DNA from: an uncultured Methylomirabilota bacterium
GTDB taxonomy: Bacteria > Methylomirabilota > Methylomirabilia > Methylomirabilales > 2-02-FULL-66-22
Assembly (NCBI GenBank): GCA_963705305.1
Contig: OY970067.1
Span: 3,168,001 to 3,232,000 of the forward strand
Length of the DNA stretch: 64,000 bases
Reading direction: 5' to 3'
The notes under the pieces were generated by a model that ran no database searches, was not told where the DNA came from, and saw only the letters and a program-made list of their open reading frames with translations. The position numbers and the translations under genes are program-made. Below are positions 23,870 through 58,791 of this stretch, in pieces (positions within the stretch are counted from its first letter, which is position 1; the number at the start of each line of letters is the position of its first letter).

Positions 23870-23901
23870 CCTCGGACCGAGCGGGTGCCCCGGAGATGAC
23901 C

Positions 23902-28100: not shown

Positions 28101-28672
28101 TGGCGGGCGACGACCGGGCGGCCGAGAAAGCGAGCGAGGCGCAAGCCCTGCTCGCCGGGATCCGCACGGAGGCCGGGCGATATCTCCGGGCCCGCCTGGC
28201 GGCCTCGCTGCTCCAGCAGGAAATCGAGCGCTACCGGGAGACCCATGCGGGCGACTTGGTCAAGGCGGCCGGCGCGCTCTTCGCGCGCGTGACCTGCGGG
28301 GCGTTCAGCGGCCTGGGCGAGCGACTGACCGAGAAGGAACAACCGATGCTCGTGGGACTCCGCGCGGACGGCAGCCGGACCGAGGAGGTCACGGTAGAAG
28401 GGATGAGTGCCGGGACCCGGGACCAGCTCTACTTGGCCCTCCGGTTGGCGTACCTGGAGCGGCATCTACAACGGAACCCACCGTTTCCGCTCATCCTCGA
28501 CGACGTCCTCGTGAATTTCGATGACGAGCGGGCCGCAGCCGCCCTGGCCGTGTTCGGCGAGTTCTCGCGGGGCACCCAGGTTATCCTCTTCACACACCAT
28601 CAGCACCTGCGCGAGCTGGCCCGGGCTGCCGTGCCGGCGGAGATCCTGTTTGAGCACGAATTGATTGCGTGA
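25173..28672 (+). pseudogene. YhaN/Rad50-like ABC ATPase with long coiled coil, one-base frameshift at ~27435
   Basis: Walker A YGANEAGKS in the first ORF; MSAGTRDQLYLALRL, ILDDVLVNFDD and LFTHH in the second. Adding one G to the G-run at 27433-27436 joins them. Confidence 0.85.
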
Positions 28673-34699: not shown

Positions 34700-35008
34700 T
34701 CACCTGACGTTCCCCCAGAGCCGGGCGAACGCCGTGCGTCCGCTGCTCCACATCAGACGGAACATGGCCAGGAAGGCCTGGGCCAGGACGCGGAGGATCA
34801 CGAGCATCGTTGTGAGGGCCGCGAGTACTGCCGCCTGGGCCAGGAACCTCGATGGGGCCCAGAAGAGGGCGCCAACCAGGAGGAATCCGCCGAGGAGGAT
34901 CCAGGAGCCGACCGCCGGCGCGAGGGTGGGCCAGAGCCAAGAGGACACCTGGTCGCCGGCAACATAGAGCAACCCGCAGAGCACGAGATAGAGCAGACAG
35001 CCCATCAC
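34700..35008 (-). CDS. Small integral membrane protein
   Basis: About 3 hydrophobic helices; 4-bp overlap with the traD stop. Confidence 0.6.
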   Translation of the reverse strand: MMGCLLYLVLCGLLYVAGDQVSSWLWPTLAPAVGSWILLGGFLLVGALFWAPSRFLAQAAVLAALTTMLVILRVLAQAFLAMFRLMWSSGRTAFARLWGNVR

Positions 35009-36849
35009 GCCTCCGCTTCGCTGTCGGCTGGCTCCGCCCGCTCCGGCTCAGCGGGGGGTGCCGGGGCCGGTCCGAGGATGGTGAAGTCCTGCGTCTGCCG
35101 TTTCCGGGTCGGCCGCTTGCCGCCGGTGCGCGTGGTGCTCGTCCTCGAGGCTTCCCCGGTCCCGTTCCCACCCCCCTCGGACACGTTCGCCGTTTTGGGA
35201 AGCGCCTCGATCAGGTTGAGCCCGCGCGGGTTGTTCCGGGGCACCGGCTTCATCTCCTCGTGCCCCGCCTCCGGCAGTTCCAGATACACCAGTTGGGCAT
35301 CCTCGTGCAGGCTCGCCCCAGTGTCCGGGTCCTGGATGTACAGGACCGCCTGGCCCGTTCGCTGATGCATGAGCTGCTCCGGTCGGATTACGTAGTCGTA
35401 CCGCTCCTGGACGCCGTGCGATTCGCTCTGGCCGTTGTTCGACCGATCTGGCATCGGGCTCACCCACGCCGCCGAGCGGCTCTGGGTGCGGGCCGTCATC
35501 CTCGAGCGGAAGAGCGCGATCTCCTCGCCGACGGTCTTGGCCATCGTCTCCGCGGTGGGGAAGTCCCCGAGCTTCATGATGACCTTCGTCGAGCAGTTTC
35601 CAAAGATGAAGTCCTGCTGCTGCCTGCTGGCGATGGCGAACCCCGAGGCCACCTGGGCAGCGGCCACGAGTCCCACCCCCGCCGAGCGGGCCTGCTCGAA
35701 GAGCCGCTCGATCCCCTCGACGTTCATGTAGGCGGAGGCCTCATCCATGAGGACGAGGTAGGGGATCCGCGGACGGTCATTCCGTTGCTGCAGGGTCCCG
35801 ACCGCCTGTTTCAGGTCGGCGATCAGCATCCGCGCCATGGCGGTGGCGGTCTCGGTCTCCGCCAGGATCGGGAGCGCCACGTAGACGATGAGCCCGTGGA
35901 GGAGGGCGTCGAGGAGATCGAGGGATGGGCCGGTGTGGTTCATGATCTTGCCGAGCTCGCCCCAGGCGTACGCCGACACGTAGGAGGGGGCCCCGCCCAC
36001 CATTTTCTTCATGCGCTCGATGTCGAGTTGCCCCTTCTGGTTCCGGTAGTTCGCCAGGAACGAGGTCAAGGCCGAGTGCTCCTCGGTCCCTGGCGGACAG
36101 GTGCGCTCGAGCCAGAGGAGGGCATCTGCCGAGGTAAGGGCCTGGTACACGTCGTTGAAGGTGATCAGTGGATTGATCCGAATCATGGCCCCGAGGATGG
36201 CGTGGAGCGCGGTATTGGCCTGCCCGCGCCAGAAGTCCGCCTCACCCTTCCCCGCGCTCGCGCCCCACAGGGCCATGACCCGGGAGAGGATCTCTTGCAG
36301 CCGGCCGCGGAGCAGCGGGTTCCAGGTGTGCGAGATGGTGGGATCCGGGGGCCAGAGCACCCGGATGTCCTCGACCCGGTCCGCGTGCCGGCAGAGCGCT
36401 AGGACGGTTTGCAGGGACTCCTTGTCGACCTTGGCGTCGATCATCAGGCAGCCCCCGCCACGCTGGATCTGCTGGGCGAGCAAGGAGAGGAGCAGTTGCG
36501 TCTTGCCGGAGCCCGAGCTTCCCAAGACCAGGGTGTGATACTGCAGGCTATGGTTACTGAGCCGGATCCACCCTGCCGTCTTGCTCCAGCCCACGGTAAG
36601 GGCATCCCCCACGGGCGCCGGCGTGCGCGGCTTGCGCATGTCGTTACTCACTCGGTCGGACACCAAGCAGAACGCCCCGAGGCCCCCCGCAAGCAGGAGC
36701 AGGATCAGGAAGAGGGTCTTCAAGGGCAGGTAGAGGCTGCCTAGCGCCGCGTGGAGAAGGACGAAGCGAGGCAGGGGGAACAGGGGAAAGCCCGTCGCCA
36801 GGGCGAGGAGGCCAAAGAAGCACCAGGTCCACCGACTTGAAGAGCCCAT
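35005..36849 (-). CDS. traD: Type IV coupling protein (TraD/VirD4-like)
   Basis: N-terminal TMs, Walker A GSSGSGKT, IDAK, TWNPL, Walker B VLMDEA, FEQARSAG. Confidence 0.88.
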   Translation of the reverse strand: MGSSSRWTWCFFGLLALATGFPLFPLPRFVLLHAALGSLYLPLKTLFLILLLLAGGLGAFCLVSDRVSNDMRKPRTPAPVGDALTVGWSKTAGWIRLSNHSLQYHTLVLGSSGSGKTQLLLSLLAQQIQRGGGCLMIDAKVDKESLQTVLALCRHADRVEDIRVLWPPDPTISHTWNPLLRGRLQEILSRVMALWGASAGKGEADFWRGQANTALHAILGAMIRINPLITFNDVYQALTSADALLWLERTCPPGTEEHSALTSFLANYRNQKGQLDIERMKKMVGGAPSYVSAYAWGELGKIMNHTGPSLDLLDALLHGLIVYVALPILAETETATAMARMLIADLKQAVGTLQQRNDRPRIPYLVLMDEASAYMNVEGIERLFEQARSAGVGLVAAAQVASGFAIASRQQQDFIFGNCSTKVIMKLGDFPTAETMAKTVGEEIALFRSRMTARTQSRSAAWVSPMPDRSNNGQSESHGVQERYDYVIRPEQLMHQRTGQAVLYIQDPDTGASLHEDAQLVYLELPEAGHEEMKPVPRNNPRGLNLIEALPKTANVSEGGGNGTGEASRTSTTRTGGKRPTRKRQTQDFTILGPAPAPPAEPERAEPADSEAEA

Positions 36850-36908
36850 CGCGCGTCTCGCCTTCGCTCCGTGCGGCCCGGGGAAGAGCTGGCCGCTGTT
36901 CGCAGGCA

Positions 36909-36951
36909 AGCATAGGCAATGCCGCGGCGGTGTCGAGAGCATCTTTCTGCA
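36909..36951 (-). promoter_or_regulatory. Island promoter, copy 2 (traD operon)
   Basis: TGCAGAAAGATGC-tc-TCGACA-N16-TATGCT. Confidence 0.65.
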
Positions 36952-37304
36952 GCCATCTGACGAATGGGCCGCTTCTCGATGACAGCTCTCGGTGACGGCC
37001 TTCGAAGATGCAAGAAATGTTTCGCGCCCATCTGGCGCGCGGTTCCCGCTTCCGTTGCTACGCTGGAGACCGCGCTGAAGGGGTAGAAGTAGAGAAATTA
37101 CGGGTGCGCTTGGGGTGGAGGTCTGATGGAAAACACGAACTCCTCCGGTCTGCCGCGCGATTTCATACGAGACCGGAGGCATTAGCTAATAGTTGCAGAG
37201 CTTCTCTAGCTCCGAGGTCGCGGCGACGATCGACGCGACCGTGCGGCACGATACCGAGATGCGGGTGGAGAAGAACTTCGTGGGATGTCCGTGTAGTCTT
37301 GCTG

Positions 37305-38102
37305 TCAAAGGTCCGCCGATCTTCTGGCGATGAGCGCGCTGACCTCGACGATTTCGCTGAATTCGCCAGCCGGGGAGAGGCGCGCCAACCCTGCCCGCAG
37401 CGCTCGCTCGAAGGCGGGGCGCCGCTCGCCGAGGGTATCGGGGGACGTGGTGGAAGACGAATAGGCGCGGCCGACGATCGCGTCCGCGTCCAGCCGGCGC
37501 GTGACGATCACGCCGTGACGTTCGAGCGAGGAGAACGCGGAGCGCAGCAGCACCACCTCCTGCGGCTCTTCCAATTGCTTCCGCTCCCGGCGCTCGGCGG
37601 CGACCGCGGGCACGAAGTCTTCGCGGAGCCGCTCGACGAGGGCCCGCCAATCCGCGCCGTGGGTCGCAATGGGCTTGTCACCGAACAGGGCAATGCCCCC
37701 GCCAGGCTCGATCAGGTGATCGAGGACCGCGAGCGTGGCGTCGCGATCCATCCAGTGGAACGAACGACCCAGGGTCGCGAGCCGGAAGCGGCCGAGCGTC
37801 AGAGTGAGGTCGTAGGAACTGCCCTCGATCGTCTTCACGGAGACCCCCGCCGCTGCGGCGCGCTCGCGGGCGGCCGCGAGCATCCTCGGCTCGGGATCGA
37901 GTGCGGTGACGGTCGCCCCGAGGCGCGCGAACGCGATGGCAAGCTGACCCGGCCCACAGCCCAGATCGAGCACGGGACTCGCGGATTCAAGCCCGAGCCG
38001 GTCGGCGACGAGGGCGATGAGCCGGTTCGGGTACGGAACGCGATACCGCAGGTAGTACGGGACCGTGGATTGGAAGCGGTGGGGGTCGAAGGGAACCGTC
38101 AT
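37305..38102 (-). CDS. Class I SAM-dependent methyltransferase
   Basis: VLDLGCGPG, ALDPEPRML, GRSFHWMD, EPGGGIAL. Confidence 0.9.
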   Translation of the reverse strand: MTVPFDPHRFQSTVPYYLRYRVPYPNRLIALVADRLGLESASPVLDLGCGPGQLAIAFARLGATVTALDPEPRMLAAARERAAAAGVSVKTIEGSSYDLTLTLGRFRLATLGRSFHWMDRDATLAVLDHLIEPGGGIALFGDKPIATHGADWRALVERLREDFVPAVAAERRERKQLEEPQEVVLLRSAFSSLERHGVIVTRRLDADAIVGRAYSSSTTSPDTLGERRPAFERALRAGLARLSPAGEFSEIVEVSALIARRSADL

Positions 38103-38131: not shown

Positions 38132-38653
38132 CTATGTAGACATCAGATCATACGGGATGTCCCCGAGAAGCTTTCCCCAGCGGCTCACGGCCTTCGTGAC
38201 CTGGTCCAGGGCCGTGCAGTACCCCACCGGGTCGAAGCCATCCGGATCGCTACGGAGGAAGGTCAACATGGCTTCGCACTGTTCTGCGATCGCTCCGACG
38301 AGGGCCCGGGCCCGCTGTCGCACCGGGGCCGCCGGATCGATGAAGCGTGCGGGCAATTTTGCCCGGGTGAACTCAATCCGCTCGCTCCCGCCTCTTGCGT
38401 TGTACACCTCGTCGGTTGCCAGCCGTAATCCATTCTCGAAGGCCCCTTCGAATTTCATCCAGAGTCCGCTGAACTGGGCGGCCGTGAAGTCCGGGTGCTC
38501 CTCCATGAACTTGTGGAGCTCGAACAGTGGGGCCATGGTCTTCTCGATCACCTGGATGGCCCGGGTCCGGTGATTCACCTCCGGCTGGCCGGAGGTCCCC
38601 CGGGTCTCTGCGATAACCTCCGGGGTAACGGCAGACACATTGCGTGTTTTCAT
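38132..38653 (-). CDS. Hypothetical alpha-helical protein
   Basis: Clean ORF with SD AGAGAGGG; no family recognised. Confidence 0.55.
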   Translation of the reverse strand: MKTRNVSAVTPEVIAETRGTSGQPEVNHRTRAIQVIEKTMAPLFELHKFMEEHPDFTAAQFSGLWMKFEGAFENGLRLATDEVYNARGGSERIEFTRAKLPARFIDPAAPVRQRARALVGAIAEQCEAMLTFLRSDPDGFDPVGYCTALDQVTKAVSRWGKLLGDIPYDLMST

Positions 38654-39046
38654 GGCCCTCTCTTTGTATCTTACCGCAATCGGCTTGGAAAGCATAAGCT
38701 GGTGCACCGAGGGCAAGAATCCAACAAAGCTAAAAGGGGCAACTTGTCCGGTCTCCGCGTCGAGCTAGTAGCCGGATCCATCACGCCGCTGGAGGAACCG
38801 GCAGTGTCAGTCCGGTGGTCAGTGTCCTATTCTGATCGAAAGCGACCCGGCGCGCTGCATCCCCCCGTACCGAATCAGCCATTTTCCGGTTTTCACTTCA
38901 GATCCATCAGTCACTTCGGGGAGATGGACCATTCCATTCATCTTTCCGTAGAAAAAGTCAGCATAGCTATCGGCCCTCTTGGTACTTCACTCGAGTCAAT
39001 AATGCGTCAAGAAGAGCACTGTAATCCTCTTTCGAGAAAATAATAC

Positions 39047-39076
39047 TTTACAATGTTGCCCGCAACGTTATATAAG
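39047..39076 (+). promoter_or_regulatory. Putative promoter with a dyad in the spacer
   Basis: TTTACA-N18-TATAAG; AATGTTGC-cc-GCAACGTT dyad at 39052-39069. Confidence 0.5.
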
Positions 39077-39177
39077 TCAATTCACTCCTGCGGCTCTTTG
39101 CTCGCATCCGTGGAAAGGAGCGTCCTTCGGAAAGCGTCAAGGATAAGCAGGGGACCCGGAAAGTTCTTTGCGGAGAT

Positions 39178-39513
39178 ATGGCAATGCATCAAGCAGTGGC
39201 TGTGCTAGAGGCAGGGGCGATCGGACCAGTGGAGAACACGGACAGGCGGCTCATGCTGCTGTCGGAGGTCGCAGAACGGGTAAACGTGGACCGGCGTGAT
39301 CTGAACGAGTGGATCAATCTGGGATTGCTCGATCCACGACCGATTGAGGTCGGGCTCAAGGGTCGGCGGACCATCGGGCCCGGGAGGGCCTCAATCCCGT
39401 ACCGCCCATTGGGCAAAGGGTATCTGGTGTCGGAACTCGACGGAATCCGTCAGCAAGTGGAAGCGCTAAAGCAACGCCGGACGTGGCAACCCTACAAGGA
39501 GGCTGCCCAGTGA
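39178..39513 (+). CDS. MerR/Xis-like winged HTH protein
   Basis: MLLSEVAERVNVDRRDLNEWINLGLLDP pattern. Confidence 0.65.
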   Translation: MAMHQAVAVLEAGAIGPVENTDRRLMLLSEVAERVNVDRRDLNEWINLGLLDPRPIEVGLKGRRTIGPGRASIPYRPLGKGYLVSELDGIRQQVEALKQRRTWQPYKEAAQ

Positions 39514-40100
39514 TCCAGGCCCTGACGATCCTCTTCTTCGCCATGGCGGCCCTCCTGGTCTTCTCCGTCTGGCAGCGCGCCCAGGCACAGATCGCCGCCG
39601 ATGTCCCCAAGGGGTATCGGGTGTTCTCGGCCGATCTGGGGCACGACACCCGACTGGACAGCCGGGGCGCCATCCTGCTGCGCGACAATGAGTGGGGGAT
39701 CACGGGAAAGGTAGACCTTCTGCTCCAGAACGTCGCAACCCGTGCCGTGATTCCGGTAGAGTACAAGGCGGCGTGGCACGGATTTGAGCCCGGGAAGGCC
39801 CAGCCGAGCCACATCCACCAGCTCGCCACAGCCCTGGTCCTCTGCGAGGGAGACAGCCGGGTGGGGCAGTCGCCGCCTGAGGGGTGGATTCGCTACATTG
39901 ACGAACGCGGGGCCCTGGTCGCCGCCGGCGAGGTCCACATTCAGAACACGCCGGAGATCCGGGAGCGGGTCATCGCGACCGCCCAGCGGATGCGCCGGGC
40001 CCTCGTGACCAGCGAGGAGCTCCATCGCGATCACCGCTCCGTGGCGAAGTGCTGCCGGTGCGCTCTGCGGGACACCTGCGGCGAGGTCCTGGTCGCCTAG
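39510..40100 (+). CDS. Cas4-like PD-(D/E)xK nuclease, C-terminal half, with N-terminal TM anchor
   Basis: GTG overlapping the upstream stop, SD AAGGAGG; TM ILFFAMAALLVFSVW; GITGKVD, PVEYK, HQL, terminal C-x2-C-x5-C. Confidence 0.82.
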   Translation: MIQALTILFFAMAALLVFSVWQRAQAQIAADVPKGYRVFSADLGHDTRLDSRGAILLRDNEWGITGKVDLLLQNVATRAVIPVEYKAAWHGFEPGKAQPSHIHQLATALVLCEGDSRVGQSPPEGWIRYIDERGALVAAGEVHIQNTPEIRERVIATAQRMRRALVTSEELHRDHRSVAKCCRCALRDTCGEVLVA

Positions 40101-40136
40101 CGGAGAAGAGACGCCATAAATGGACGCTGGAAGCAG

Positions 40137-40415
40137 ATGGAGAAGAGCAATCGGGCGCCGAAGCCCCGGCCCGACCGCCCGGATATTTCCGCCAACGAGA
40201 TCCAAGACTTCTTGTACTGCGCCCGAAGTTGGTGGTTGCGCCGGGTCCAACAGGTGGCCATCAAGACCCCCGAGATGACGGCCGGGACCCAGGCCCATGC
40301 CCTGGTCGGACACCTCGTGGCCGAGACCGTCGTCCTCGAGCGCGTGGTGCGGGCTTGTACCGGCTTGGCCGTGCTGATCGCGGGGGCGATCGGCTACCTG
40401 TGGCTCGTCCGGTAA
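40137..40415 (+). CDS. Cas4-like N-terminal half with C-terminal TM anchor
   Basis: ISANEIQDFLYCARSWWL and MTAGTQAH match the Cas4 N-terminal Cys and GxxxH motifs; TM GLAVLIAGAIGYLWLV. Confidence 0.78.
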   Translation: MEKSNRAPKPRPDRPDISANEIQDFLYCARSWWLRRVQQVAIKTPEMTAGTQAHALVGHLVAETVVLERVVRACTGLAVLIAGAIGYLWLVR

Positions 40416-40439
40416 CCGGACCGGTACAAGAGAGATGCC

Positions 40440-40673
40440 ATGCCTCTCATCATGCTGTTGGCTCTACCGATCTGCGCGGTCGTTCTCGCCATTCGCACTC
40501 ACCGGCAGGCAGTGAAGCGCGGCGAGGATCTCGGGGTCGTCGGGCTAGCTGTCCGGTTGTGGGCGTACGGTCAGGTCCTGGGGCCCCTGCTCCTCGGCTT
40601 GAGCCTCCTGGCCTATCTGATCGGGGTGGTCTGTTTCATGGATGGGCCGTCAGCCCCGAGACACCCCTGGTAG
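40440..40673 (+). CDS. Small membrane protein
   Basis: 77 aa, 2-3 hydrophobic segments, last gene before a terminator. Confidence 0.6.
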   Translation: MPLIMLLALPICAVVLAIRTHRQAVKRGEDLGVVGLAVRLWAYGQVLGPLLLGLSLLAYLIGVVCFMDGPSAPRHPW

Positions 40674-40693
40674 GCCGGTGCCGCGGCTTACTC

Positions 40694-40734
40694 CTCGAAT
40701 CCCCTCCGCCTCATCGGGAGGGGATTCGGGTTTT
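40694..40734 (+). terminator. Intrinsic terminator of the HTH-Cas4 operon
   Basis: CTCGAATCCCCTCC / GGAGGGGATTCGGG stem plus TTTT. Confidence 0.75.
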
Positions 40735-40815
40735 CAGGGGGTGCCGAAGAAACGCTCATGGCCAGGACCGGTGCCGGCCGTGGAGTGCATCGCCCTTGGC
40801 TTTCGGGTGCCTTGA

Positions 40816-43800
40816 TCAGAACGGCAGGAATCGCTTATAGAACGGCTTGTACCCGCCATCTTGCCCCTTGACGCCTGCCACGACGTTCTCAGCGACTCGG
40901 ACATCCGCATCGGACTTCAGCGCCCCAAGCGTCTGCGGCTCCTGTGTGAGGCCCTCGCGCATGAGGGCCTGGCGGCTCTTCATGGCCTCCGCGCTTGGCA
41001 CGGCGTGGCCGCCGGGGGAGCTGCCCGGCTCGCCCGGGAGGTGTGGGTGACCCGGGGCCGGATGGGGCTGGCTGCTGTCCGTGGCGTGAGGGTGGACCGG
41101 GTGCGGTTTGGAACCCTTGGGATTCTGGGTCGCGTGCGCGAGGGCCGTCGTCGGTGCTGGATCGCCGGTGGGCATCAGCGTGCTGCCCGAGAGCACGGGG
41201 GCACGAACGGCCCGGCCGAAGGCCGAGAGGGGATCCAGTGCCGCCGGATGGTCAGCCGGCGAGGGCGGCGCCCCCGGGGTGGTGAGTGTCGTGTGCACGC
41301 CCTGGAGCGTGGTCCGTTGCGCCTCAACGTCGCGTTCGATCCGCTGCAGGGCCTCCAGCCCCTGGGGGTTGGCCTTCAGGGCCTGCTGGGCCAGCTGGCC
41401 AAGCGCTTCGCGGCGGTTCGGGTCGAGGAAGAGGTTTCGCATCTCACCGTAGAAGCGGGTGACCGCCTCCTGCCCCTGCTCGGTCGTGCGGGCCGCGTCG
41501 AGGCTCCCGTATTGCGCGCGGTAGTGCTGGTCCCAGTAAAGCAGGGCCATGTCGGTCTCCCTGGACATCGACAGGGTTACCGAGGCCGCCTGGGTTCGCT
41601 CCAACTGCTCCCGGGCCGACCGCTCGGCAGACTGCGCGTGGTCCACCGAGTTGATGGCGCTTGCGGCCTGGTCGAAGCTATAGCGCTGATCGTGGCTGCT
41701 GGCGATCTGGGATCCTTCTGCGAGGGCATCCCGGAGGCTGCGGTCGCGCGCCACGGACCGCGCGAAGGCGTTGTCGAAGCTGCGGGCCTGGGTCTCGTTC
41801 AGCGTGAAGGCGCCCATAGTCTGCCCGTTCTTGGACGCGGTGACCTGAAGCTGGCTGGTGGCTCCGGTCCCGAGGACGGAGAGGCCGAACGACATGCCGT
41901 CTTGCGCGGCCAGCGACCGGACGCTGCTCTCGCTTTCGGTGTTGGCCATGGCCTGCTGCAGCGCATACCCCACGTGTTTGGAGGTGACGCGGGTGATCGC
42001 GTCTGCCAGCCCGCTCGAGGCGGTGTGGGTCTTGCTCACGTCCTCGGACTGAAGGCGGTGGACCAGGTCGCCGATGGCGAGCCCGATGGTCCGGGCGGCG
42101 CCCTGCGTGGAGCGGTCCGTGTTCGCAAGGGCGGAGGCGTACCCGCGCCCTTGCGAGGCGGCCTCCGTTTGCAGCTGCTGGAGCCCCGCGTTCGGGGCGG
42201 AAAAGAGCGTGCCCTGGGAGGACACCGACAGGCCGAAGCCGTCGTCGGATCGGAGGTTCATGAAGGTTTCCCCCCCGCTCCCCCAAGTGGTGTTCCGCAT
42301 CCCGCTGCCGATCGCCGTGACCGAGACGGGAGTGCTCCGGGATCCGAGGATGTCGTGGGCCACCGGCTGCCCCATGGGGTCCGTCCCCAGCATCTGGGTG
42401 TGGGGCACGAGGTTCCGCTGGTCCATGGTCACGGTGCCGGCGTTCACGTTCCCCACCGCTGCCTCGACGCCCATCCCGGCGCCCGTGTGCCATGGCCCGT
42501 GCTGCACGACCTTGGTCATGGCGTACGAGCCCCCGAAGATCATGCCGCCGAGGAGCATGACGCCGACGGCCACCGGGAACCCAGAGGCCGCATAGGCATA
42601 GTTGAAGGTGTTCGTGACGGGCTGGGTGGCGGCCACCGACATGCCCCAGTCCATCTGGTTGCTGTAGAGCCCCGCCTTCCCCGCCTGCATGTAGAGGATC
42701 CGGTTGGCGAAGACGTAGGCCAATGGCCAGAGCTGGAGCCAGAGTGCATTGCCGAGGACCTGGGGGAAGATCCGGGGCATGACGATGATCAGCGGGATCC
42801 CAAAGAGGAGGAAGCCGTAGAAGAGGAACTCAAGGGTCGCGTGGAAGAAGGGGAGGATCTGCTGGATCATGAGGCCCGTCGTGATCCACGCGGAGGTCTG
42901 CTGGGCCTCCGCGGCACTGATGGCCCATGCCGTGAGGACCCCGTTTTGGCTGCTGAGGGCGGCGTTCGCCTGGATCGAGGGGATGAGCTGGTTGGCCGCG
43001 AAGCGGACCTTCAGGAGATCCACGGCATTCTGGCTGAGGCCGAGGACGTCCTGGGCCGCCGTGTCGATCGCCGGCAGGACCTGGGTCGTGTCCGTCTTGC
43101 CGATGGTCTGACCGATGATGGCCAGGAGCTGCGGGTCTTGGGCCGCCTGGCCGAGGCGCGGCAGGATGATGCTATCGAAGGCCTCCGGGCAGCGCTGGTC
43201 CTCGAGGGGCTCGGCGCAGCCATCGGGGAGCCCATCGCTGTTGCACTGGGAGGGGAGGAGGATCGGGATGGCCGGGTTCGTGCCCCCGAGCATCGCCTCG
43301 GCCGTCTTCGCCTTGACGATCTGCTCGACCGTCGTGTGGCCGCTCTGGACGTCCGGGATGATGCAGAGCCGGATGTACGCGTCCAGGTCCGTGGCGAGGT
43401 TCAGGTCGATCAGGGTCGCGTCCAGGGTCGTCTGCACGACGCGGGGGCCCCACCCCAGGCCGGACTCCGTGAACCTCCCGTAGTAATCCACCGGGTAGAT
43501 GGCCTGCTCGATTTTCTCGGCCAGTTGTTCCCCGAAGAAGCTGCTGGCGTGGCCGATCACCGCGATGGGGAAGGGGACCCCGGAGACGAGGTCGGTGCTG
43601 AGCGCCACGCGGTCCACGATCGCCACCGTGGTCTGGAAGCTCGGGTTGCAGAGGATGCCGACGATCCCAGCCGTGAGCGCCACGTGGGGGATGGCCAGGA
43701 GGGCCTGCTGGCCCCCCAGGGCACTCGGGATCGCGGCAAACAGGCCGGCGAGAAGCGCCACCAGTCCCGCTACCTTCATGGCCGAGGAGAGGCCACCGTT

Positions 43801-43974
43801 CTCGCTGGCGAACAGGGCAATGCCCTGGAAGGCGCTCTTGAGGAGCTCGCCGTTGCCGTAGGTGGTGACGTCCCAGACGTTCGCCGCGGACGCCGGCGTG
43901 GGGAGGGCGAGCAGGCCGATCGCGAGGATCGGGAGGGCCAGCCCGAGGCTCCCGCGGATCGGTGCGCGCCTCAT
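40816..43974 (-). CDS. traG: F-type mating pair stabilisation protein
   Basis: VTTYGNGELL...FQGIA, SGVPFPIA, WLQLWP, polar C-terminal half; follows traH. Confidence 0.88.
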   Translation of the reverse strand: MRRAPIRGSLGLALPILAIGLLALPTPASAANVWDVTTYGNGELLKSAFQGIALFASENGGLSSAMKVAGLVALLAGLFAAIPSALGGQQALLAIPHVALTAGIVGILCNPSFQTTVAIVDRVALSTDLVSGVPFPIAVIGHASSFFGEQLAEKIEQAIYPVDYYGRFTESGLGWGPRVVQTTLDATLIDLNLATDLDAYIRLCIIPDVQSGHTTVEQIVKAKTAEAMLGGTNPAIPILLPSQCNSDGLPDGCAEPLEDQRCPEAFDSIILPRLGQAAQDPQLLAIIGQTIGKTDTTQVLPAIDTAAQDVLGLSQNAVDLLKVRFAANQLIPSIQANAALSSQNGVLTAWAISAAEAQQTSAWITTGLMIQQILPFFHATLEFLFYGFLLFGIPLIIVMPRIFPQVLGNALWLQLWPLAYVFANRILYMQAGKAGLYSNQMDWGMSVAATQPVTNTFNYAYAASGFPVAVGVMLLGGMIFGGSYAMTKVVQHGPWHTGAGMGVEAAVGNVNAGTVTMDQRNLVPHTQMLGTDPMGQPVAHDILGSRSTPVSVTAIGSGMRNTTWGSGGETFMNLRSDDGFGLSVSSQGTLFSAPNAGLQQLQTEAASQGRGYASALANTDRSTQGAARTIGLAIGDLVHRLQSEDVSKTHTASSGLADAITRVTSKHVGYALQQAMANTESESSVRSLAAQDGMSFGLSVLGTGATSQLQVTASKNGQTMGAFTLNETQARSFDNAFARSVARDRSLRDALAEGSQIASSHDQRYSFDQAASAINSVDHAQSAERSAREQLERTQAASVTLSMSRETDMALLYWDQHYRAQYGSLDAARTTEQGQEAVTRFYGEMRNLFLDPNRREALGQLAQQALKANPQGLEALQRIERDVEAQRTTLQGVHTTLTTPGAPPSPADHPAALDPLSAFGRAVRAPVLSGSTLMPTGDPAPTTALAHATQNPKGSKPHPVHPHATDSSQPHPAPGHPHLPGEPGSSPGGHAVPSAEAMKSRQALMREGLTQEPQTLGALKSDADVRVAENVVAGVKGQDGGYKPFYKRFLPF

Positions 43975-45449
43975 CAGTGCCCCATGGGCGATGCGGATCG
44001 CAACAGCTTCCCCGAGAAGGCCGTGTGGCGGGAGAACATGCTGCTACTGCTGCCCGCGTTCGCCGTCGTGATGCTCGCGAGGTCTTGGAGGATCCGGAGG
44101 GTGTTCATGAGGTTCCCCTGGGCCTCGGCGAACTGTTTGTCCAGGGTATCCCGCCGCTGGGCGAACAGCGTGTTGAAGGTCTCAAGCTCCCCGCTATTCT
44201 TTGCCTTCTGCGATTCGGCAAAGATAGTATCGCCGAGCTGCCGGACGTAGACTCGGAGGATCTGGACGGCGAGGTACTTGCTCGCGAAGCTGATCACCAT
44301 GTCGCTCGCGCCCGGCACGTTCTGGCTTGCCACCATGAGCCGCGTGAGCGGGATACCGGTGATATCGGTGGTCAGGTATTGGCTCAGGGGGCTCTTCTTC
44401 CGAGAGCGAAGATCCGACTGGTAGGTCCCGAGCTGGCCGCGGATCGTTTTGGTGAGTCCGAGGTAGGCGGGCGCCAGGGTCACCCGGGGGTTCAGGCAGA
44501 GGTCGTACTCGTCGCAGCTGTAGCCCTGCTTGTTCTCGTACCCCTCAAGGAGGTCGAGCACGTCCAGGCGGGCTGGAAACGGTGTGGCACTCTTTTCCCC
44601 TTCGGCGGCGAGTAGGTTGGTGACCACTGTTCCGAACAATGCCATGAGCTGCTCGCCGAAGTCGGTGGTGTACTCGGGCATGTCGCCCTCGATCCGCGAG
44701 TAGGCCGACCAGAACACGTTGACGCTGGTCGTCTTCGGCGGATCGAAGGGGTTCGACCCGGCATTCCGCCAGCGGGTGGTTTCCCGCTGCTCCGCCTGCG
44801 GGATGGCGCTCGGATCCGAGCCACAGACCGCGTCGCCCCCCCACCAGTCCTTGACCGCCCCCAGGTCGTTGTTGATCGCGATACAGTTGGTATAGGAGGT
44901 CTGGCGGAACTTGTCCGGGGTGAGTCCCGCTGCGGCAAACAGTCCTTTGGTCATCTGGCAGGAGTTCTTCAGATTCCCGGCCACTTCCCGGGCCATCTGC
45001 TCGAGCTTGGCGAGTACGGTGGCGCACTGCGGGCAGAGCGTTGTGAGGGCCATGTTGAACGCCATGCCCATGGCGTTCTGCGCAATGGATTGGAGGTACT
45101 TGACAAATTGGTCCATATCGATGAAGGAGAAGGCCCCTCCCATCAGGGAGATCCCGCCGCAGCCGGCGGTGAGCTTGGGCATGGAGAGGGCGAACGGGGT
45201 GGGGTTCCGGTTCGGGAACCGCATCTCGAAACTCCCGCCGGAGAGGTAGCCACGGGACTGGCCCTCGTAGAAGCCGGGCTTGGAGGTGGTCATCTGCCCC
45301 TCCCAGTCCTGGAGGAAGTTGTCGATGCCGCTCTCGAGGCCTGCAGTGGCGAGTGAGGGGAAACACGTCGTGGCGAGGAGGACCAGCACGAGGATTCCGG
45401 CGCCGCAGCGCAGGCGAGAGCGACGGATCCAACGGTATGCGAATCGCAT
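43974..45449 (-). CDS. traH: F-type pilus assembly protein
   Basis: PGFYEGQSRGYLSGGS, AGCGGISLMGGAFSFI, ALTTLCP, NSCQ. Confidence 0.92.
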   Translation of the reverse strand: MRFAYRWIRRSRLRCGAGILVLVLLATTCFPSLATAGLESGIDNFLQDWEGQMTTSKPGFYEGQSRGYLSGGSFEMRFPNRNPTPFALSMPKLTAGCGGISLMGGAFSFIDMDQFVKYLQSIAQNAMGMAFNMALTTLCPQCATVLAKLEQMAREVAGNLKNSCQMTKGLFAAAGLTPDKFRQTSYTNCIAINNDLGAVKDWWGGDAVCGSDPSAIPQAEQRETTRWRNAGSNPFDPPKTTSVNVFWSAYSRIEGDMPEYTTDFGEQLMALFGTVVTNLLAAEGEKSATPFPARLDVLDLLEGYENKQGYSCDEYDLCLNPRVTLAPAYLGLTKTIRGQLGTYQSDLRSRKKSPLSQYLTTDITGIPLTRLMVASQNVPGASDMVISFASKYLAVQILRVYVRQLGDTIFAESQKAKNSGELETFNTLFAQRRDTLDKQFAEAQGNLMNTLRILQDLASITTANAGSSSSMFSRHTAFSGKLLRSASPMGH

Positions 45450-45598
45450 CCACGGCCTCCGGAGCGTCCCGGACCGCTCCGACGGGCCCGCCGCGGTGGT
45501 GGCGGAGGGCCACCGGGTGGACCCGGCCGGAACAGTCCGGAGAGTGGAGAGTGCCGGTGACTGGAGTGAGGTTACGGAAGAACCAGACCGTCGCACCG

Positions 45599-46186
45599 TT
45601 ACAATCTCCGGATCGGCGAGGGGGATTCCCCGCCACTCGAGCAGAGGGCCGCCGCGGTCGTGGTCACCCGGAGCGACCACCACGTGGGAGGCACCCGGGA
45701 TGAAGGGAGGTGGCGTCGGTCAACGCCACCGTAGGCCCAAGGAATACGCCGCGCCAGCGCTGAACACGTGCCGGGCGGGAGCGACTCCCCGTGCTGGCAT
45801 CCCCGAGAGCCGCCGACTCGCATGGAGGGTCCGAGCGCACAGGCCGCCAGCAGGACCCCGAGGACGTAGGGCAGCATGTACGTCCCGGCGGCACAGGCCA
45901 CGCCAGTCATCAACGGCCCAAGGGATTGTCGCCGGGCCGCCGACCCCGCGCCGATCAGCAGCATCAACAGGGCCAATCGCTGGCTGAGCGACCGCCGAAG
46001 CAGTATGAGCACCGGCATATCCATCTGCGTGCAGTGCAGCCCACCGTCCGCCTCCGACGGCGCCACCAGTGCACAGACCACGATCAGACCTCCGCAGGCG
46101 CTACCCAGGGTCCCGTCAGCCCTCCCAGCACCACGATCGAACTGGCGCAGGAGCCCCGGTCCACCCGATGGGCCCAGCACCCGCAC
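45599..46186 (-). CDS. Divergent TraA-like pilin paralog
   Basis: SLSQRLALLMLLIGAGSAARRQSLGPLMTGV aligns with TraA SLGKALALIALILGIGVAAARQSFGALFGGV. Confidence 0.5.
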   Translation of the reverse strand: MRVLGPSGGPGLLRQFDRGAGRADGTLGSACGGLIVVCALVAPSEADGGLHCTQMDMPVLILLRRSLSQRLALLMLLIGAGSAARRQSLGPLMTGVACAAGTYMLPYVLGVLLAACALGPSMRVGGSRGCQHGESLPPGTCSALARRIPWAYGGVDRRHLPSSRVPPTWWSLRVTTTAAALCSSGGESPSPIRRL

Positions 46187-46206
46187 CGTGCGCGCTGCGA
46201 CGTGAG

Positions 46207-46536
46207 CTAGAAGAGCGCGCTGATCACCTGGTCGATGACGCCGGGGCCGATGCTGGCGGCCGCCGCGACGCCGACCCCCCCGAAGAGCGCGCCGAAGGAC
46301 TGGCGGGCGGCCGCCACGCCGATGCCCAGGATCAGGGCGATCAGGGCGAGCGCCTTGCCCAAGCTCCCCTTCGTCCAGTTCGAGATCAAGTCGTTCAGTT
46401 CGTCGAACGTGATGTCGTTCCCCGCGTAGGCGGCCGCGGCGCGGAGGCTCACCAGCACCGCCGCGATCACGAGCACGCGGATCAGCAAGCGAATCTCGGA
46501 CTGGTAGCGGTGGGAGAAGGTGCGGATGCGCGACAT
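46207..46536 (-). CDS. traA: Conjugative pilin
   Basis: Signal peptide, AGNDITFDELNDLISNWTKGSLGK, two TM helices, ARQS; SD AAGGAG. Confidence 0.88.
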   Translation of the reverse strand: MSRIRTFSHRYQSEIRLLIRVLVIAAVLVSLRAAAAYAGNDITFDELNDLISNWTKGSLGKALALIALILGIGVAAARQSFGALFGGVGVAAAASIGPGVIDQVISALF

Positions 46537-46564
46537 GAGCGACTCCTTTCCGTGTGCGAGGGAG

Positions 46565-47320
46565 TTACTTCCGGGTGGTTGCCTGCCAACGCGCTATCAG
46601 GGCGTCGTAGGCGAGGTACCCGTCCAGCCGGGCGCCTGTATCCAGCACGAGCGTCGGGGTGCCGTGGATCTCGAGCGTGTCTGCCAGTGCCTTGATGTGG
46701 GCCAGCGGCGTGCGGCAGCCGGCGTCCACCCCGTCCAGCGTCTGGCCATCCATGATTGCGAGCAGCGCCGCCGCCGGATCCGGGCTGCACCAGACCTGCT
46801 TGCTCTTCAGCTCCGCCTGCGGGTGGAGCTGAGGCAGCGGCAGGAGGAAGACCTCCACTCCCACCCCGTCCTTCAGGAGGCCGGGCAGGGTGTCGGCGTG
46901 GAACTTCTTGCAGAATGGGCAGTCCACGTCCTCGAAGACGGCGATCCGCTTGGTCGATTTTGCCGGCCCGAGATGAATCGCCTCCGCAAAGGGGAGGTCC
47001 TGGAAGTTGACGGCATTGAGGGCGAGCAGCTTCTGGGCGGTGAGGTTCTTCCGGGCGGCGAAGTCGTAGAGTTCGCCGACGAGGACGTACCGGCCGCTGG
47101 CGTCCATGTAGACGACGCTCTTGCCGGACCGGACCTCATAGAGGTTCGGGATCGGCGTGGGCTCGACGGCCTCCACCTTGGACTGCGGGAAGAGGTGCTG
47201 GGCCGTCTCCTGCAGGCTGGCCGCCGGGCTCACACGGGGGAGCACCACGAGGCACCCGACGAGGCCGAGCATGGCGAGGCCGGATGCCCACACACGACTG
47301 CATGGACGAGTCTTCTTCAC
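46565..47320 (-). CDS. dsbC: DsbC-family disulfide isomerase
   Basis: TPIPNLYEV dimerisation domain, DCPFCKK, GTPT. Confidence 0.9.
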   Translation of the reverse strand: MKKTRPCSRVWASGLAMLGLVGCLVVLPRVSPAASLQETAQHLFPQSKVEAVEPTPIPNLYEVRSGKSVVYMDASGRYVLVGELYDFAARKNLTAQKLLALNAVNFQDLPFAEAIHLGPAKSTKRIAVFEDVDCPFCKKFHADTLPGLLKDGVGVEVFLLPLPQLHPQAELKSKQVWCSPDPAAALLAIMDGQTLDGVDAGCRTPLAHIKALADTLEIHGTPTLVLDTGARLDGYLAYDALIARWQATTRK

Positions 47321-47455
47321 GCGTGCCTCCCGGGCTGCATAGACCAGGTGAGATCCATCGGGTAAGGGGGGACCGACGAGCACCTGGAGACGGCTAGTGC
47401 GTCATGTCCAGCAGGATCTCTGGAACCAGCGCTACCCCCTTCGACTGCCGCTCCT

Positions 47456-47498
47456 CTTGTACCAAACGCAGGGGTCGCTGCCAGGGCAGGTTTCTGCA
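47456..47498 (-). promoter_or_regulatory. Island promoter, copy 3 (dsbC-traA-traH-traG)
   Basis: TGCAGAAACCTGC-cc-TGGCAG-N16-TACAAG. Confidence 0.65.
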
Positions 47499-47623
47499 CA
47501 TTCCATCGGCGTGAAATAAACTGGCGGGCTGGAGACAGCGATGGCGGCTCCGCACGATACGGGACCGCCATCCGATGCCTTCCAGTGAGGAGCGCGACAG
47601 GCGGGCCTCCGCCGAGACATCGC

Positions 47624-48066
47624 TCACCTGATCGTGGCCCGGTGCGGGGCGACTTGGCGCAGGCGATCCTTCATGCCTGACGGCTGGGTCACCGCTCCCT
47701 CGACGGTCACCCATGCGGGGGGTTCCAAGGCGTGCTGCCGGAGCCGCCACTCACCGGGCGTCGACACGCCCAGCTCCAGGCTCGGCCACTGCTTCGCACG
47801 CCTCGGGACCGCGTGATCGAGGGCGCTCCCACCGCACGTGAAAGAGATGCTGGCCTGGCCCTGGGAGATCCGCGTGCAGTGCAGGACGCTCGAGGGCCAT
47901 GTGGCTGTCTCCACCTCTGGGGCCGGAGCACGCAGGCCAGCAACACGCCGAGCACGAGGATCCCGCGCTGTTCCCTAGTCCTACGGCGTCGTGGCACCGG
48001 CGCGCGCACATCCAGCGCTCGCCCGGACGCTCGCTGGCCTGAGCGCCCGGGCGAGCGGAGAGACAT
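47624..48066 (-). pseudogene. Possible small exported protein split by a one-base frameshift near 47920
   Basis: Signal-like GILVLGVLLACVL and the downstream ETATWPSSVLHC... are in adjacent frames. Confidence 0.3.
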
Positions 48067-48070
48067 CCGG

Positions 48071-51000
48071 CTAGTTCTGCGGTCGGAGGGGGACGGTCAC
48101 CGGACCCAGGTCCAGCGTCGCGCCGGAGTTGTCCGTGGCATACAGGTGCACCGTCGCCGTCTCGGGCGGGCTGTTCACCGGAACCTTCAGCGACCAGCCT
48201 TGCCTCACGTCCACCTTGAGCTCCGGGACCACCCAGCGGCGGATCTTGACGCTGCCGTCCGGATCGAGGCCATTCGCAGAGCACCGAAGTGTCGCGCTTG
48301 CGGTGCCCACCTGGGTCTTGGTGCAGTCGATCGTGCCGCGGGGGACCATGTTCTCCGCCACGTCCACCGTCTGGCTTGCGGTGAGCTCCTTCCCGGCTGC
48401 CGTCTTGACGGTCAGGGCAAACGTGTGGGTCCCCGGCTGGGTTACGGTCGCGCGGTTCGGCGGCCAATGGAGCGCGATGCCGTCGGCGATCCACGTTGAC
48501 GTGGTGACCCGGTCTCGTGCGTCCAGCGCACCCGGCGGCACCGTGTACTTGAGGAGGTACTGCACCGGGGGCCGCTGGGCGCCACCGGAGCTGATCGTGA
48601 TGTATGGAGCGTCCGTGGGCGGCGCCTGGACCGTGATGTCCTCCGACCAGGCGAAGGAGCCACTCACCGTTCCGAGCACCGCGAGGGACACTCGATAGGT
48701 CCCGGGCTGCGTGAAGGTCACCGCGAAGTTTGTGGACCCGCGGGTGCTCTTGATCGGCGGCGCGCTCGGGTCCGCGAGGCTCACCGCCGTCCAGCTGATC
48801 GTGATCCGCTCCCGCTTCACCGGGCTCTGGAGCTCCGTCAGTCGATAGCGGTAGGTCGTCGGGGCGTACGGTCCGTCGATCCCGTACAGGAATGCTACTG
48901 CCTGCAGCAGCGGCTCATCGATCAGCAGGCTGGCACTCTGCGTCACCGGCGTGCCGTCCTGCAGCGTGCCGGTGAAGACCAGGCTATACTGCCCGCTAAT
49001 GTGCGGCGTTACCCCGTCCAGCAGGAAGCCACGCAGGCTCGTCTGGACGATGAAGGTGTTCGAGGTGGCATCGTAATGCAGCGGGAGCGTGGTACTCGGC
49101 CCGTTCACCATCGCCTGCCCGTCGGCCGTGCCGGTCAGGGTCAGGGTCAGCTTGGCCGAGCCCTCATCGAAGGCCGACGGGACCCCGACGCCCTCCGCGT
49201 CGAGGCCTGGTACCACGATGGTCACCCGCACATCCACCGGATAGATGGTGGGGGTGAGGTGGTACTTCCTGGCGTCGGGCCGGCTGTCGTTCGGCTCCGA
49301 GCTATACCCCGCGTTCAGGAACTGCACGGCGAGGTCCAGGTAGGGGGGTACCTGCGCCGGGATGACCACCTCGGACGGCTCCGTCTGCGTCCGGGTCTGC
49401 GACCCCTGCGGGGTGAAGTAGCCCACCACCTGATACGTGCCGGGGGCCGTGTAGGTGCAAGTCACGCTTTGACCCGCCAACATTTGGGCCGGGTGGGTGC
49501 CGCAGTCCACGAGGTACTTCGAGGCCGGGAGTTCCTCGGGGAAGGTCAGCGGCACCAGGATTGTCCGCGGCCCCGTCTGGGCGAGCGCGCCGACTTGGAG
49601 GCTAATGGGCGCCCCGCTGAGGCTCGTGTCCACCGCACCGCTCAAGGCCACGTTGCCCTGGGTCCGACCGCTGAAGGCCACGTGGTAGTCCCCGGGTGCA
49701 TTCAGGAGCGTCTGCCCGGTCAGCGTAAGGCCGTCCGCGCTCAGCGTCAGGGTCACGGTGATCGCCGCCATCTGCGGGCGGGTGATCGTGAGGACCGACG
49801 TTTGCCCGAAGATCGGGTCCACGATTCCCACGACGGCTGGTGGCGCGAGGGTCACCGTCGCGTCCAGCACCGCCGGAAGGGTCGTGCTGACCGTCGCCCT
49901 GTTGGCTGGCTGACCATTGAGGGCGATCGTGATCTCCTTGACGGTGACGGGCACGGAGGCGACCGACACCGTCAGCGGCGCCGTGGCGACCCTCCGGCTC
50001 CCGTTCGGATCCGTGAACGCTCCGGTCACCGTGGCGCTGCCCGCCTTCGCGTAGGTGCACTCCCCCGTCAGGCCCGAGAACCCCTGAGCCGGGCGCGTGC
50101 CGCAGTCCGTGGTCGCATCGGCGCTCGGGGCATCCGCGGGCCAGTGGATGGGCACGCTGACGTTGGCCCCGTCTTGCACTGGCGGATCGGCCTGCAGCGT
50201 GATCGTGGCCAGGGTGAGCGGGAGCGCCACGCTCGTGGTGAGGCTCGATCCGCGCTGCGTGTGCCCGTCCAGGGTGAAGACGTAAGCCCCGAATCCGGAC
50301 GGGGAGAAGCTCGCCGTATAGTGCAGCGCGTCGGTCCGTGTCGCGGTCAGCCGCGCGATCTGGGTTCCGTCCTTGGTCACCACCATCTTCGATGTGCCGA
50401 GATTCAAGCTGTCCGGGACGCCCACACCGTCCGCTGCGGTGAACGTCACCGGGAGTCCGATCGTCTGCGGGAGCGTATACAGGGTCCGCCCCGCCAGCGG
50501 CTGGTTGCCGAGCATCGGCACCAGCGCGGGCTGGTTCAAGGCCAGGGCGGGGATCGTGACCGTCAAGGGGGCTGTTGCCGTGTTCGGTGCCCCCACCGGA
50601 TCCGTGAACCTTCCGGTCACGGTGTAGCTTCCGGCCTGGGTGTAGAGGCAAGTACCTGTCGGCCCGGTCACGGTCTGGGTCGGGCTCGTGCCGCAGTCCG
50701 CCACCATCTCCGTGACCACAGGGTCCGCCGGCCAGGTGATCGGCACCGCCACGGTCCACCCAACGCGCTGCTCGGCCACGCCAGCGGTCAGCGTCACGGG
50801 GGTCAGCGTGAGCACCAGGCTCCCCGTAGTGGTGACCGTGGCGCCGCTGCCGGTCAGCCCCAGGAGCGTGAAAGTGTAGGTCCCCGACGCCGTGAGGGAC
50901 GCCGACGCCGTGTAGTGAAGCCCATCGATGCGGGTCAGCGTGAGCGAGCCGGCCGAGACCCCGTCCTTCGTCATCGCGATCGCGGACGAACCGAGGTTGA

Positions 51001-58756: not shown

Positions 58757-58791
58757 CGAATCTCCGAGCCCCGCGCGCTCCTGGCGAACCG

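Follow-up and report, generated by a model that had tools for sequence, protein, structure and literature searches.

The window analysed here, a 64,000-nucleotide stretch of contig OY970067.1 from an uncultured Methylomirabilota bacterium, carries an F-type integrative conjugative element at ssrA, and set among its tra genes, between traD and traG, is a run of four short open reading frames (ORFs A, B, C and D) on the + strand at 39178-40673. The best overall explanation of the data, and one that we consider probable, is that ORFs B and C encode the two subunits of a single membrane-anchored nuclease of the Cas4 family (RecB-like PD-(D/E)XK, with a 4Fe-4S cluster), carried in a conserved module of the tra region. 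The known Cas4-family nucleases are soluble enzymes of CRISPR adaptation or the products of poorly understood 'solo' genes. That the present pair represents a composite, membrane-anchored member of this family is well supported, and the role of such an enzyme is discussed below with lesser degrees of confidence.

Two adjacent genes with complementary pieces of Cas4

ORF B (39510..40100, + strand, 196 aa) encodes the C-terminal two-thirds of a Cas4-type PD-(D/E)XK nuclease, preceded by an N-terminal transmembrane (TM) helix at about residues 2-24. It begins with a GTG codon that has AGGAGG 7 nt upstream and overlaps the stop of ORF A as GTGA, and the same start position is found in all close homologues. 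The motif residues are D69 (GKVD, motif II), E84 and K86 (PVEYK, motif III) and Q104 (HQLATA), and the tail of the protein reads C181-x2-C184-x5-C190; among 22 B homologues D69, E84, K86, C181, C184 and C190 are invariant and Q104 is present in at least 90 %. Motif IV (QhxxY) is only half kept, as Q104 is present and the position of the Tyr is taken by A108, the Tyr being found in relatives outside the ORF B clade. An earlier note on this DNA, made from the sequence alone, had already read ORF B as a TM helix plus Cas4 motifs with three terminal cysteines and a Tyr-to-Ala change, and coordinates, motifs and alignment confirm this description. C112 of ORF B was considered as an alternative fourth ligand of the cluster; it is invariant in the 22 close homologues, but it was rejected in view of its absence from the fused protein P0032 (described below) and from wider relatives.

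ORF C (40137..40415, + strand, 92 aa) carries the N-terminal piece of Cas4, with the motifs YC28ARSWW and GTQAH54, and ends in a TM helix at about residues 73-91. In 11 C homologues R11, D13, R14, P15, D16, C28, W32, W33, G50, H54 and G58 are invariant. The matches of the two proteins to Cas4 models are complementary: on the NCBIfam cas4 model TIGR00372, ORF B covers positions 56-178 of 180 (E 1.1e-8, 35.2 bits) and ORF C positions 5-47 (E 0.001, 18.9 bits), and in PADLOC ORF B matches nine models of Cas4 or Cas4-Cas1 fusions, all from about position 40-76 to the end, while ORF C matches seven of the same nine, starting at 5-21 and ending at 43-75. In Pfam, ORF C aligns with positions 2-50 of 247 of PDDEXK_1 (E 2.5e-4), and ORF B has no match at E <= 1, PF01930 included. 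The proposal that ORF C supplies the N-terminus missing from ORF B is thus borne out, with B reaching from about position 50 to the end and C covering positions 5-50 of Cas4 models; the lack of any Cas4 N-terminal similarity in the small ORF, named in the earlier note as an outcome that would speak against the idea, is not what was found, given the matches to PDDEXK_1, TIGR00372 and PADLOC models.

Searches of solved structures point to the same family. The ORF B family profile has Cas4 as its best match in the PDB (7mi4 residues 53-174, E 0.009; 8d3l residues 98-198), as has the ORF C family profile (8d3l residues 9-49, E 0.13; 4r5q residues 49-106, E 0.19), and since these E-values are weak when taken alone, their weight lies in the complementary ranges and the shared target family. 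Profiles were needed for this purpose, as single-sequence PDB searches of B and C returned chance matches or none. An AlphaFold model of ORF B alone has a mean pLDDT (predicted local distance difference test) of 76.6, with the cysteine tail (170-196) below 50, and a Foldseek search with this model returned the Cas4-Cas1 structure 7mi4 at the top (E 1.3e-5), followed by MGME1, Cas4 8d3l, SSO0001, AdnAB and Dna2.

H54 of ORF C, the motif-I His, aligns with a Cas4 His in both 8d3l and 4r5q. In SSO0001 the N-terminal His62 serves as a metal ligand alongside the Asp, Glu and Lys motif residues (PMC13621843). With H54 residing on ORF C, the catalytic metal site, like the iron-sulfur (Fe-S) cluster, would come from both polypeptides. 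The division of the cluster cysteines between B and C, as originally proposed, stands, and it is to be extended to the catalytic metal site. In the mechanism envisaged, the Fe-S cluster would staple C28 of ORF C to C181, C184 and C190 of ORF B, and the metal site would be composed of H54 from one chain and D69, E84 and K86 from the other.

Evidence that the two pieces may form one enzyme

A total of 19 loci related to B were collected, one from the genome collection and 18 from metagenomes. Two of them stop within B; of the other 17, all but one have C as the next gene downstream of B, and among these 16 loci 11 are complete, two (L011 and L022) have disrupted frames and three are cut by the contig end. 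The gene order HTH-B-C-D (HTH, helix-turn-helix, being ORF A) recurs across the related loci, and a genome of the same genus also carries both B and C. The codon-position GC pattern of real genes is seen in all four ORFs (window GC 60-70 %), and the ratio of nonsynonymous to synonymous substitution rates (dN/dS) against relatives is 0.15-0.17 for A, 0.13-0.29 for B, 0.23-0.37 for C and 0.11-0.17 for D, so that all four genes are under purifying selection. Together with the invariant residues, the presence of C after B in 16 of 17 loci and the swapped-order fusion P0032, this upholds the view that B and C are intact genes and not the product of a simple frameshift. Read-through of the B stop codon (TAG at 40098) into C, which is in frame here, was also considered and set aside, given that the two genes are in the same frame in no more than 6 of 11 loci, four of those six being close relatives, so that the arrangement is not conserved.

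A second copy of B-C-D is present in the same genome (C1:1344176-1345084; L035 9816-11124) and is decayed: its B has undergone a frameshift and a truncation (76 % identity), a stop breaks up its C (50 %), and its D seems intact (full-length tblastn match, 60 %). No homologue of a tra gene was found within 10 kb on either side of this copy.

The earlier note had proposed a heterodimer in which both the Fe-S cluster and the nuclease take shape, and this is supported as far as computation goes. The complex was predicted from residues 30-196 of B, residues 1-70 of C and a 4Fe-4S cluster, and it received a score of 0.83, versus 0.02 for the best of three controls; the mark at this level is reached by 116 of 157 solved complexes and by 2 of 215 mismatched pairs. 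At least 68 % of contacts are shared between the runs, and the pLDDT of the partner does not fall below 63. In the predicted complex C28 of ORF C touches residues 173-175 and 180 of B, and residues 184 and 190 of B lie in the interface, so that the four cluster cysteines (C28 of C with C181, C184 and C190 of B) are predicted to be adjacent; the convergence of these cysteines was the check that the earlier note had asked for, and C28 is indeed predicted to lie beside the C-x2-C-x5-C tail. The model shows the two halves as one predicted Cas4 domain, and says nothing on binding in the cell.

With regard to membrane topology, none of the 21 full-length B homologues has a Lys or Arg before the helix, and all 21 have one to four in the 12 residues after it, and the C homologues end 1-7 residues past their TM helix. 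The positive-inside rule and the tail anchor of ORF C imply that both soluble parts should be cytoplasmic, which is the compartment where Fe-S clusters are loaded, and the even helix counts (2, 4 or 8) of the unsplit relatives described below agree with a location of both pieces on one side. The B helix would accordingly insert with its N-terminus out and its C-terminus in, C would be tail-anchored, and both soluble parts would pack into one Cas4 fold at the cytoplasmic side.

Several observations weigh against the reading of B and C as one active Cas4-type enzyme. The scores of both B (35.2 bits) and C (18.9 bits) fall under the curated TIGR00372 cut-off of 65 bits. The loss of the motif-IV Tyr in favour of Ala in the clade suggests that substrate handling may differ from that of Cas4, or that activity may be reduced. 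One related locus, L014, has an intact B and no C in 16.5 kb, and B may thus act alone or with another partner. Moreover, the similarities of B and C to their counterparts are discordant: relative to the window, L019 shows 35 % identity in A and 50 % in B, but 82 % in C and 88 % in D, and L020 shows 78 % in B, but 48 % in C and 61 % in D, which implies that the two genes are not strictly co-inherited. The mosaic structure of these two loci suggests, on sequence comparison, that recombination took place between B and C, A and B travelling as one unit and C and D as another. As to the complex, the Cas4 fold is already solved, so that the high score may reflect likeness to solved structures, and the TM helices were left out of the model; the topology, finally, is drawn solely from the positive-inside rule.

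Two minor points on the related loci may be added. In L014 a 308-aa ORF at 8946-9872, located after B, has a DPPY motif and looks by eye like a Dam-like DNA methyltransferase. Two further candidate loci, L024 and L025 (tblastn, 41-42 % over 46 residues), were treated as chance matches, as the B hidden Markov model (HMM) did not recover them at E <= 0.01.

Probable origin of the split in a membrane-embedded family

A search with the B profile against 1.84 billion representatives returned 437 matches at E <= 0.001, of which 96 were at E <= 1e-10. A set of 143 domain rows was classified, made up of 142 of the best 150 matches (eight being dropped for lack of the Cys motif or for being too short) and the window's B. 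The majority (102 rows) are proteins of 160-215 aa that, according to a hydropathy scan, mostly have a single N-terminal TM helix followed by a C-piece like that of B. Another 24 rows are unsplit, with an N-terminus of the form ISASxxxxYxYCxxxWW and G..H, then 2, 4 or 8 TM helices, and then the C-piece, and 16 rows are longer forms for which the N-piece pattern gave no class. The one remaining row, P0032 (315 aa), is a natural fusion in swapped order, running from a TM helix through the C-piece, a linker and the N-piece to a second TM helix. The tree built from the 143 domain sequences has little resolution (12 of 140 inner branches starred) and was used only for one clade of 14 rows, which has 96 % local support and includes both P0032 and the window's B.

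The TM segments of the unsplit relatives are inserted exactly where the genes of the window are split. The break between B and C thus falls inside an ancestral TM hairpin, which explains the presence of an anchor on both products. The earlier observation of two anchors at the break point holds for both proteins, with the refinement that they correspond to the halves of a TM hairpin in unsplit relatives and are hence not unique to this operon. From these sequence relationships, the gene pair appears to be the fission, between the helices of the hairpin, of an already membrane-embedded Cas4-like protein and not a new invention of the operon; after fission, this lineage would have swapped the gene order to C-piece followed by N-piece.

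The few named members of the family carry automatic labels, such as 'CRISPR-associated protein Cas4' in Methermicoccus shengliensis (WP_052353351.1) and 'Dna2/Cas4 domain-containing protein' in a metagenome-assembled genome of Thermoplasmatota. The family is sporadic in the phylum, being found in 5 of 251 genomes. Two more matches to the cas4 model occur in the genome studied here, at C1:3341509-3342237 and C1:539299-539643, both below the curated cut-off; one of them spans N- and C-terminal parts and lies, about 110 kb beyond the window, in an open frame of 991 aa that is possibly AddB-like.

Split pairs on plasmids

Searches of plasmids with tblastn recovered C-piece genes on Singulisphaera acidiphila pSINAC03, on Paludisphaera borealis PALBO2 and on three Bacillus subtilis plasmids. 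Three plasmid records were inspected, and in each the upstream neighbour is an 81-92-aa 'hypothetical protein' that constitutes an N-piece with a C-terminal TM helix: WP_015250768.1 with WP_015250769.1 on pSINAC03 (typed as conjugative, MOBF/MPF_T), WP_076351862.1 with WP_076351885.1 on PALBO2, and WP_144625283.1 with WP_144625286.1 on B. subtilis NRS6116_2. The plasmid N-pieces are matched by the ORF C family HMM at E 1.2e-6 to 4.7e-9, and the C-pieces are 162-170 aa long with an N-terminal TM helix. It had been anticipated that similar pairs might already be present in databases under automatic Cas4 or hypothetical labels, and these plasmid pairs, along with the archaeal relatives, are of that kind.

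The plasmid pairs resemble B and C in being adjacent genes for an N-piece and a C-piece, each with one TM helix at the break, whereas they differ from the window in their order (N-piece then C-piece), in overlapping or lying 4 nt apart, and in having no HTH or D-like gene. Both pairs on Planctomycetota plasmids have a MobF relaxase and DNA methyltransferases as neighbours, and the Bacillus plasmid pair is accompanied by a helicase, Hfq, a thermonuclease and a toprim protein. The fission is thus common to Planctomycetota, Bacillota and Methylomirabilota, and the order C-piece then N-piece is confined to the Methylomirabilota element family.

Candidate partners of the pair within the module

The operon had been described as HTH gene, Cas4 C-piece, Cas4 N-piece, small TM protein and terminator, and all four ORFs are confirmed, with the hairpin supported by folding and missed by a strict scan. 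ORF A (39178..39513, + strand, 111 aa) encodes a small HTH protein of excisionase/MerR-like type, with weak Pfam matches to HTH_17 (E 0.011) and MerR_1 (E 0.079) and a match to PHROG 66, excisionase/regulator (E 0.0036). It is found upstream of B in 11 related loci and is probably a regulator or DNA-binding partner of the module. ORF D (40440..40673, + strand, 77 aa) has two hydrophobic segments and is found after C in 11 related loci; no family match was obtained for it in Pfam, NCBIfam, PADLOC or PHROGs, and no usable match in the ESM Atlas. It is a candidate third subunit or a candidate exclusion protein of the Eex/TraS type.

Between the module and the convergent traG lies a terminator-like hairpin (40693..40734, + strand), with a 12+2 bp stem and a 9-nt loop followed by TTTT. 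The fold at 40693-40730 (12-bp perfect stem plus 2 bp) has a free energy of -41.2 kcal/mol (z = -2.8), and none of 200 shuffled sequences folds as well. A strict promoter and terminator scan of 38600-40900 gave no calls at all, the hairpin having been missed because its loop is 9 nt long and only four T follow.

Possible role of the enzyme at the membrane

The reading that we favour, tentatively, is of an enzyme placed where DNA comes into the cell, which it cuts or trims on the cytoplasmic side of the membrane, without any link to CRISPR adaptation; such cutting would make it harder for another copy of the element, a competing plasmid or phage DNA to get in. That the enzyme acts on DNA at the membrane is supported by the anchoring of both proteins, by the plasmid or conjugative-element setting in three phyla and by the helicase neighbour on the Bacillus plasmid. 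In the same direction, a study in Synechococcus reports that a Cas4-like nuclease lowers the transfer or maintenance of RSF1010 (PMC10653904), a finding that would also suit a defence function. The absence of cas1 extends beyond the window, for which the earlier note had stated it, as no match to Cas1 (PF01867) was found in the whole 5.65-Mb, 98.9 %-complete genome, with a PF01867 control that matched in 7 of 14 known genomes. On balance, a guard against incoming DNA would be ranked first among the possible roles, processing of the element's own transferred strand second and a restriction-like system linked to a methyltransferase third; it counts against the favoured role that the data fit exclusion, defence and DNA processing alike. 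A more specific and rather improbable version is that the B/C dimer, perhaps together with D, docks at the TraG/TraD side of the F-type transfer apparatus and breaks down incoming single-stranded DNA where the channel opens into the cytoplasm, as a nuclease-based form of entry exclusion or establishment control. If it were true, the whole membrane-embedded Cas4-like family would be a guard not recognised before, acting on DNA in passage across the cytoplasmic membrane, be it through conjugation, transformation or phage injection.

The position of the module bears on an alternative that we regard as unlikely, namely that the heterodimer is part of conjugative DNA processing, trimming the transferred strand at the coupling protein or type IV secretion system (T4SS) in the donor or aiding establishment in the recipient, with foreign DNA being spared. 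Among the related loci, TraD is encoded upstream of the module in eight and TraG downstream in four, and wherever a locus shows traD and traG, the module is found between them. Identity to relatives is 46-82 % for B, 56-74 % for TraD and 53-67 % for TraG; with B in the range of TraD and TraG and these genes at its flanks, the module behaves as backbone and not as variable cargo, and its co-divergence with the backbone is what a processing function would predict, as are the MobF relaxase genes near the Planctomycetota pairs and the helicase and toprim protein beside those of Bacillus. However, conjugation systems, F-type or other, are not known to depend on a Cas4-like nuclease, the family is sporadic within the phylum and its wider relatives are archaeal chromosomal genes with automatic Cas4 labels, and L014 lacks ORF C. 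The same fixed place in the backbone argues against a further explanation, to which we likewise give little credence, in which the module is anti-phage or anti-plasmid defence cargo, possibly a restriction-like system with the neighbouring methyltransferase, and its place in the tra region is incidental. This methyltransferase (class I, S-adenosylmethionine-dependent; 37305-38102, - strand) lies between the coupling protein gene and the module and matches PADLOC mad2 (E 1.8e-19), ORF A matches mad1 (E 3.6e-4), DNA methyltransferases flank the pairs on both Planctomycetota plasmids, and a Dam-like ORF follows B in L014. The mad2 match, however, covers a generic methyltransferase domain only (positions 273-419 of 492), and the methyltransferase has no tblastn match in any of the 19 related loci; it is thus not part of the conserved module and is probably cargo of this particular element. 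Co-occurrence with MADS (PADLOC mad1-mad8) was therefore not found, the mad1 and mad2 matches being weak or generic and the methyltransferase not being conserved, and B, C and D match no PADLOC models besides those of Cas4 and Cas1 fusions.

It is also conceivable, and in our view very unlikely, that ORF D is the real entry-exclusion protein, analogous to TraS or Eex, and that B and C are a decaying or inert Cas4 remnant with a structural or regulatory role. ORF D encodes a small two-TM protein, lies beside the 3' end of traG and is under the strongest constraint in the module (dN/dS 0.11-0.17), and TraS is described as an inner-membrane entry-exclusion protein that interacts with TraG (PMC7690428); the loss of the motif-IV Tyr in B and the broken state of the second genomic B-C-D copy would be in keeping with decay. 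Such a remnant is hard to reconcile with catalytic and cluster residues that are invariant in 22 B and 11 C homologues and with dN/dS values of 0.13-0.37 for these genes, and D itself has no detectable family similarity.

Comparison with known systems

Relative to CRISPR Cas4 (TIGR00372/PF01930; structures 7mi4, 8d3l, 4ic1 for SSO0001 and 4r5q for Pcal_0546), B and C share the fold, the D...ExK motifs, the N-terminal His and the cysteine pattern of one N-terminal Cys plus C-x2-C-x5-C. They differ from it in being two genes in swapped order, in the TM helix on each, in their sub-cut-off scores, in the Ala of motif IV and in their location in a conjugative element of a genome without cas1. The unsplit membrane-embedded Cas4-like proteins of archaea and bacteria have a homologous C-piece (E down to 1e-16) and the N-piece motifs, but are single polypeptides, have 2, 4 or 8 TM helices and still carry the motif-IV Tyr. 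On the F plasmid the slot between traG and traD is that of traS and traT. The TraS protein of F and Eex of SXT are, like the membrane proteins of the module, small inner-membrane proteins encoded next to traG, although they are not nucleases; Pfam and NCBIfam scans of A-D at E <= 1 gave no TraS/Eex exclusion family, the presence of TraS/Eex models in these libraries being unchecked.

In the open-access papers and preprints searched, no Cas4 was found to be described as membrane-embedded, split or permuted. A term search of the full text of Hudaiberdiev 2017 (PMC5704561) gave no occurrence of 'transmembrane', 'split' or 'permut', and the paper mentions a Cas4 clade on Burkholderiales conjugative plasmids; a term search of Rentz 2025 (PMC12501428) gave no occurrence of 'membrane'. 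As far as could be found, the order-swapped split, the fused permutant relative, the conserved HTH-B-C-D module and its fixed traD-traG place are new, and the large membrane-embedded family in whose TM hairpin the split falls is undescribed. The predicted complex would imply that the Fe-S cluster and the catalytic metal site of a Cas4-type enzyme can be shared by two membrane-anchored polypeptides. In three phyla the split form occupies fixed places on conjugative elements or plasmids, which offers a clue to what the family as a whole may do, namely act on DNA at the membrane, and together with the fused circular-permutant relative the split form provides a natural case of gene fission and order swap in an Fe-S enzyme.

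The conjugative element around the module

The placement of the module in a conjugation region, as noted previously, is confirmed by the F-type tra genes on its flanks and by the traD and traG neighbours in related loci. Immediately after the transfer-messenger RNA gene ssrA (18450-18800, tag ANSELALAA) comes a gene for a tyrosine integrase that has an Arm-binding domain (18932-20194), and this pair, 18450-20194, is likely the left end of the element. No exact match of at least 11 nt that could mark the far boundary was found between 18651-18940, at the 3' end of ssrA, and 45001-64000. Upstream of the module lie the TraD/VirD4-like type IV coupling protein (35005..37182, - strand; Pfam TrwB_AAD_bind E 1e-17, TraG-D_C and T4SS-DNA_transf) and, between the methyltransferase and the module, a 194-aa ORF (38132-38716) for which an ESM Atlas search gave no usable match.

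On the other side, traG (40816..43974, - strand; TraG_N E 3.9e-40), which is convergent with the module, is followed by genes for TraH (43974-45683), a DsbC-like protein (46565-47383), a 2455-aa ORF (48071-55438, - strand), an SLT transglycosylase (55548-56126) and TraF, TrbC and TraU (57309-60065). The 45 ORFs scanned against Pfam (18900-60100) included no VirB4/TraC ATPase, TraB, TraK, TraE, TraL, TraV, TraW, TraN or recognised relaxase; the window may hold an incomplete T4SS gene set, or its genes may have diverged beyond detection or be located in part elsewhere. The 2455-aa ORF has no Pfam match at E <= 0.001; its GC content at third codon positions (0.87) is coding-like, it contains internal repeats (families D1 and D3-D8) that recur about every 594-600 nt, and it may encode a giant repetitive surface or pilus-associated protein. 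Just inside the element, 21751-28672 contains a PF12281 nucleotidyltransferase, a calcineurin-like phosphoesterase and an SMC_N-like ORF, which may be defence or repair cargo.

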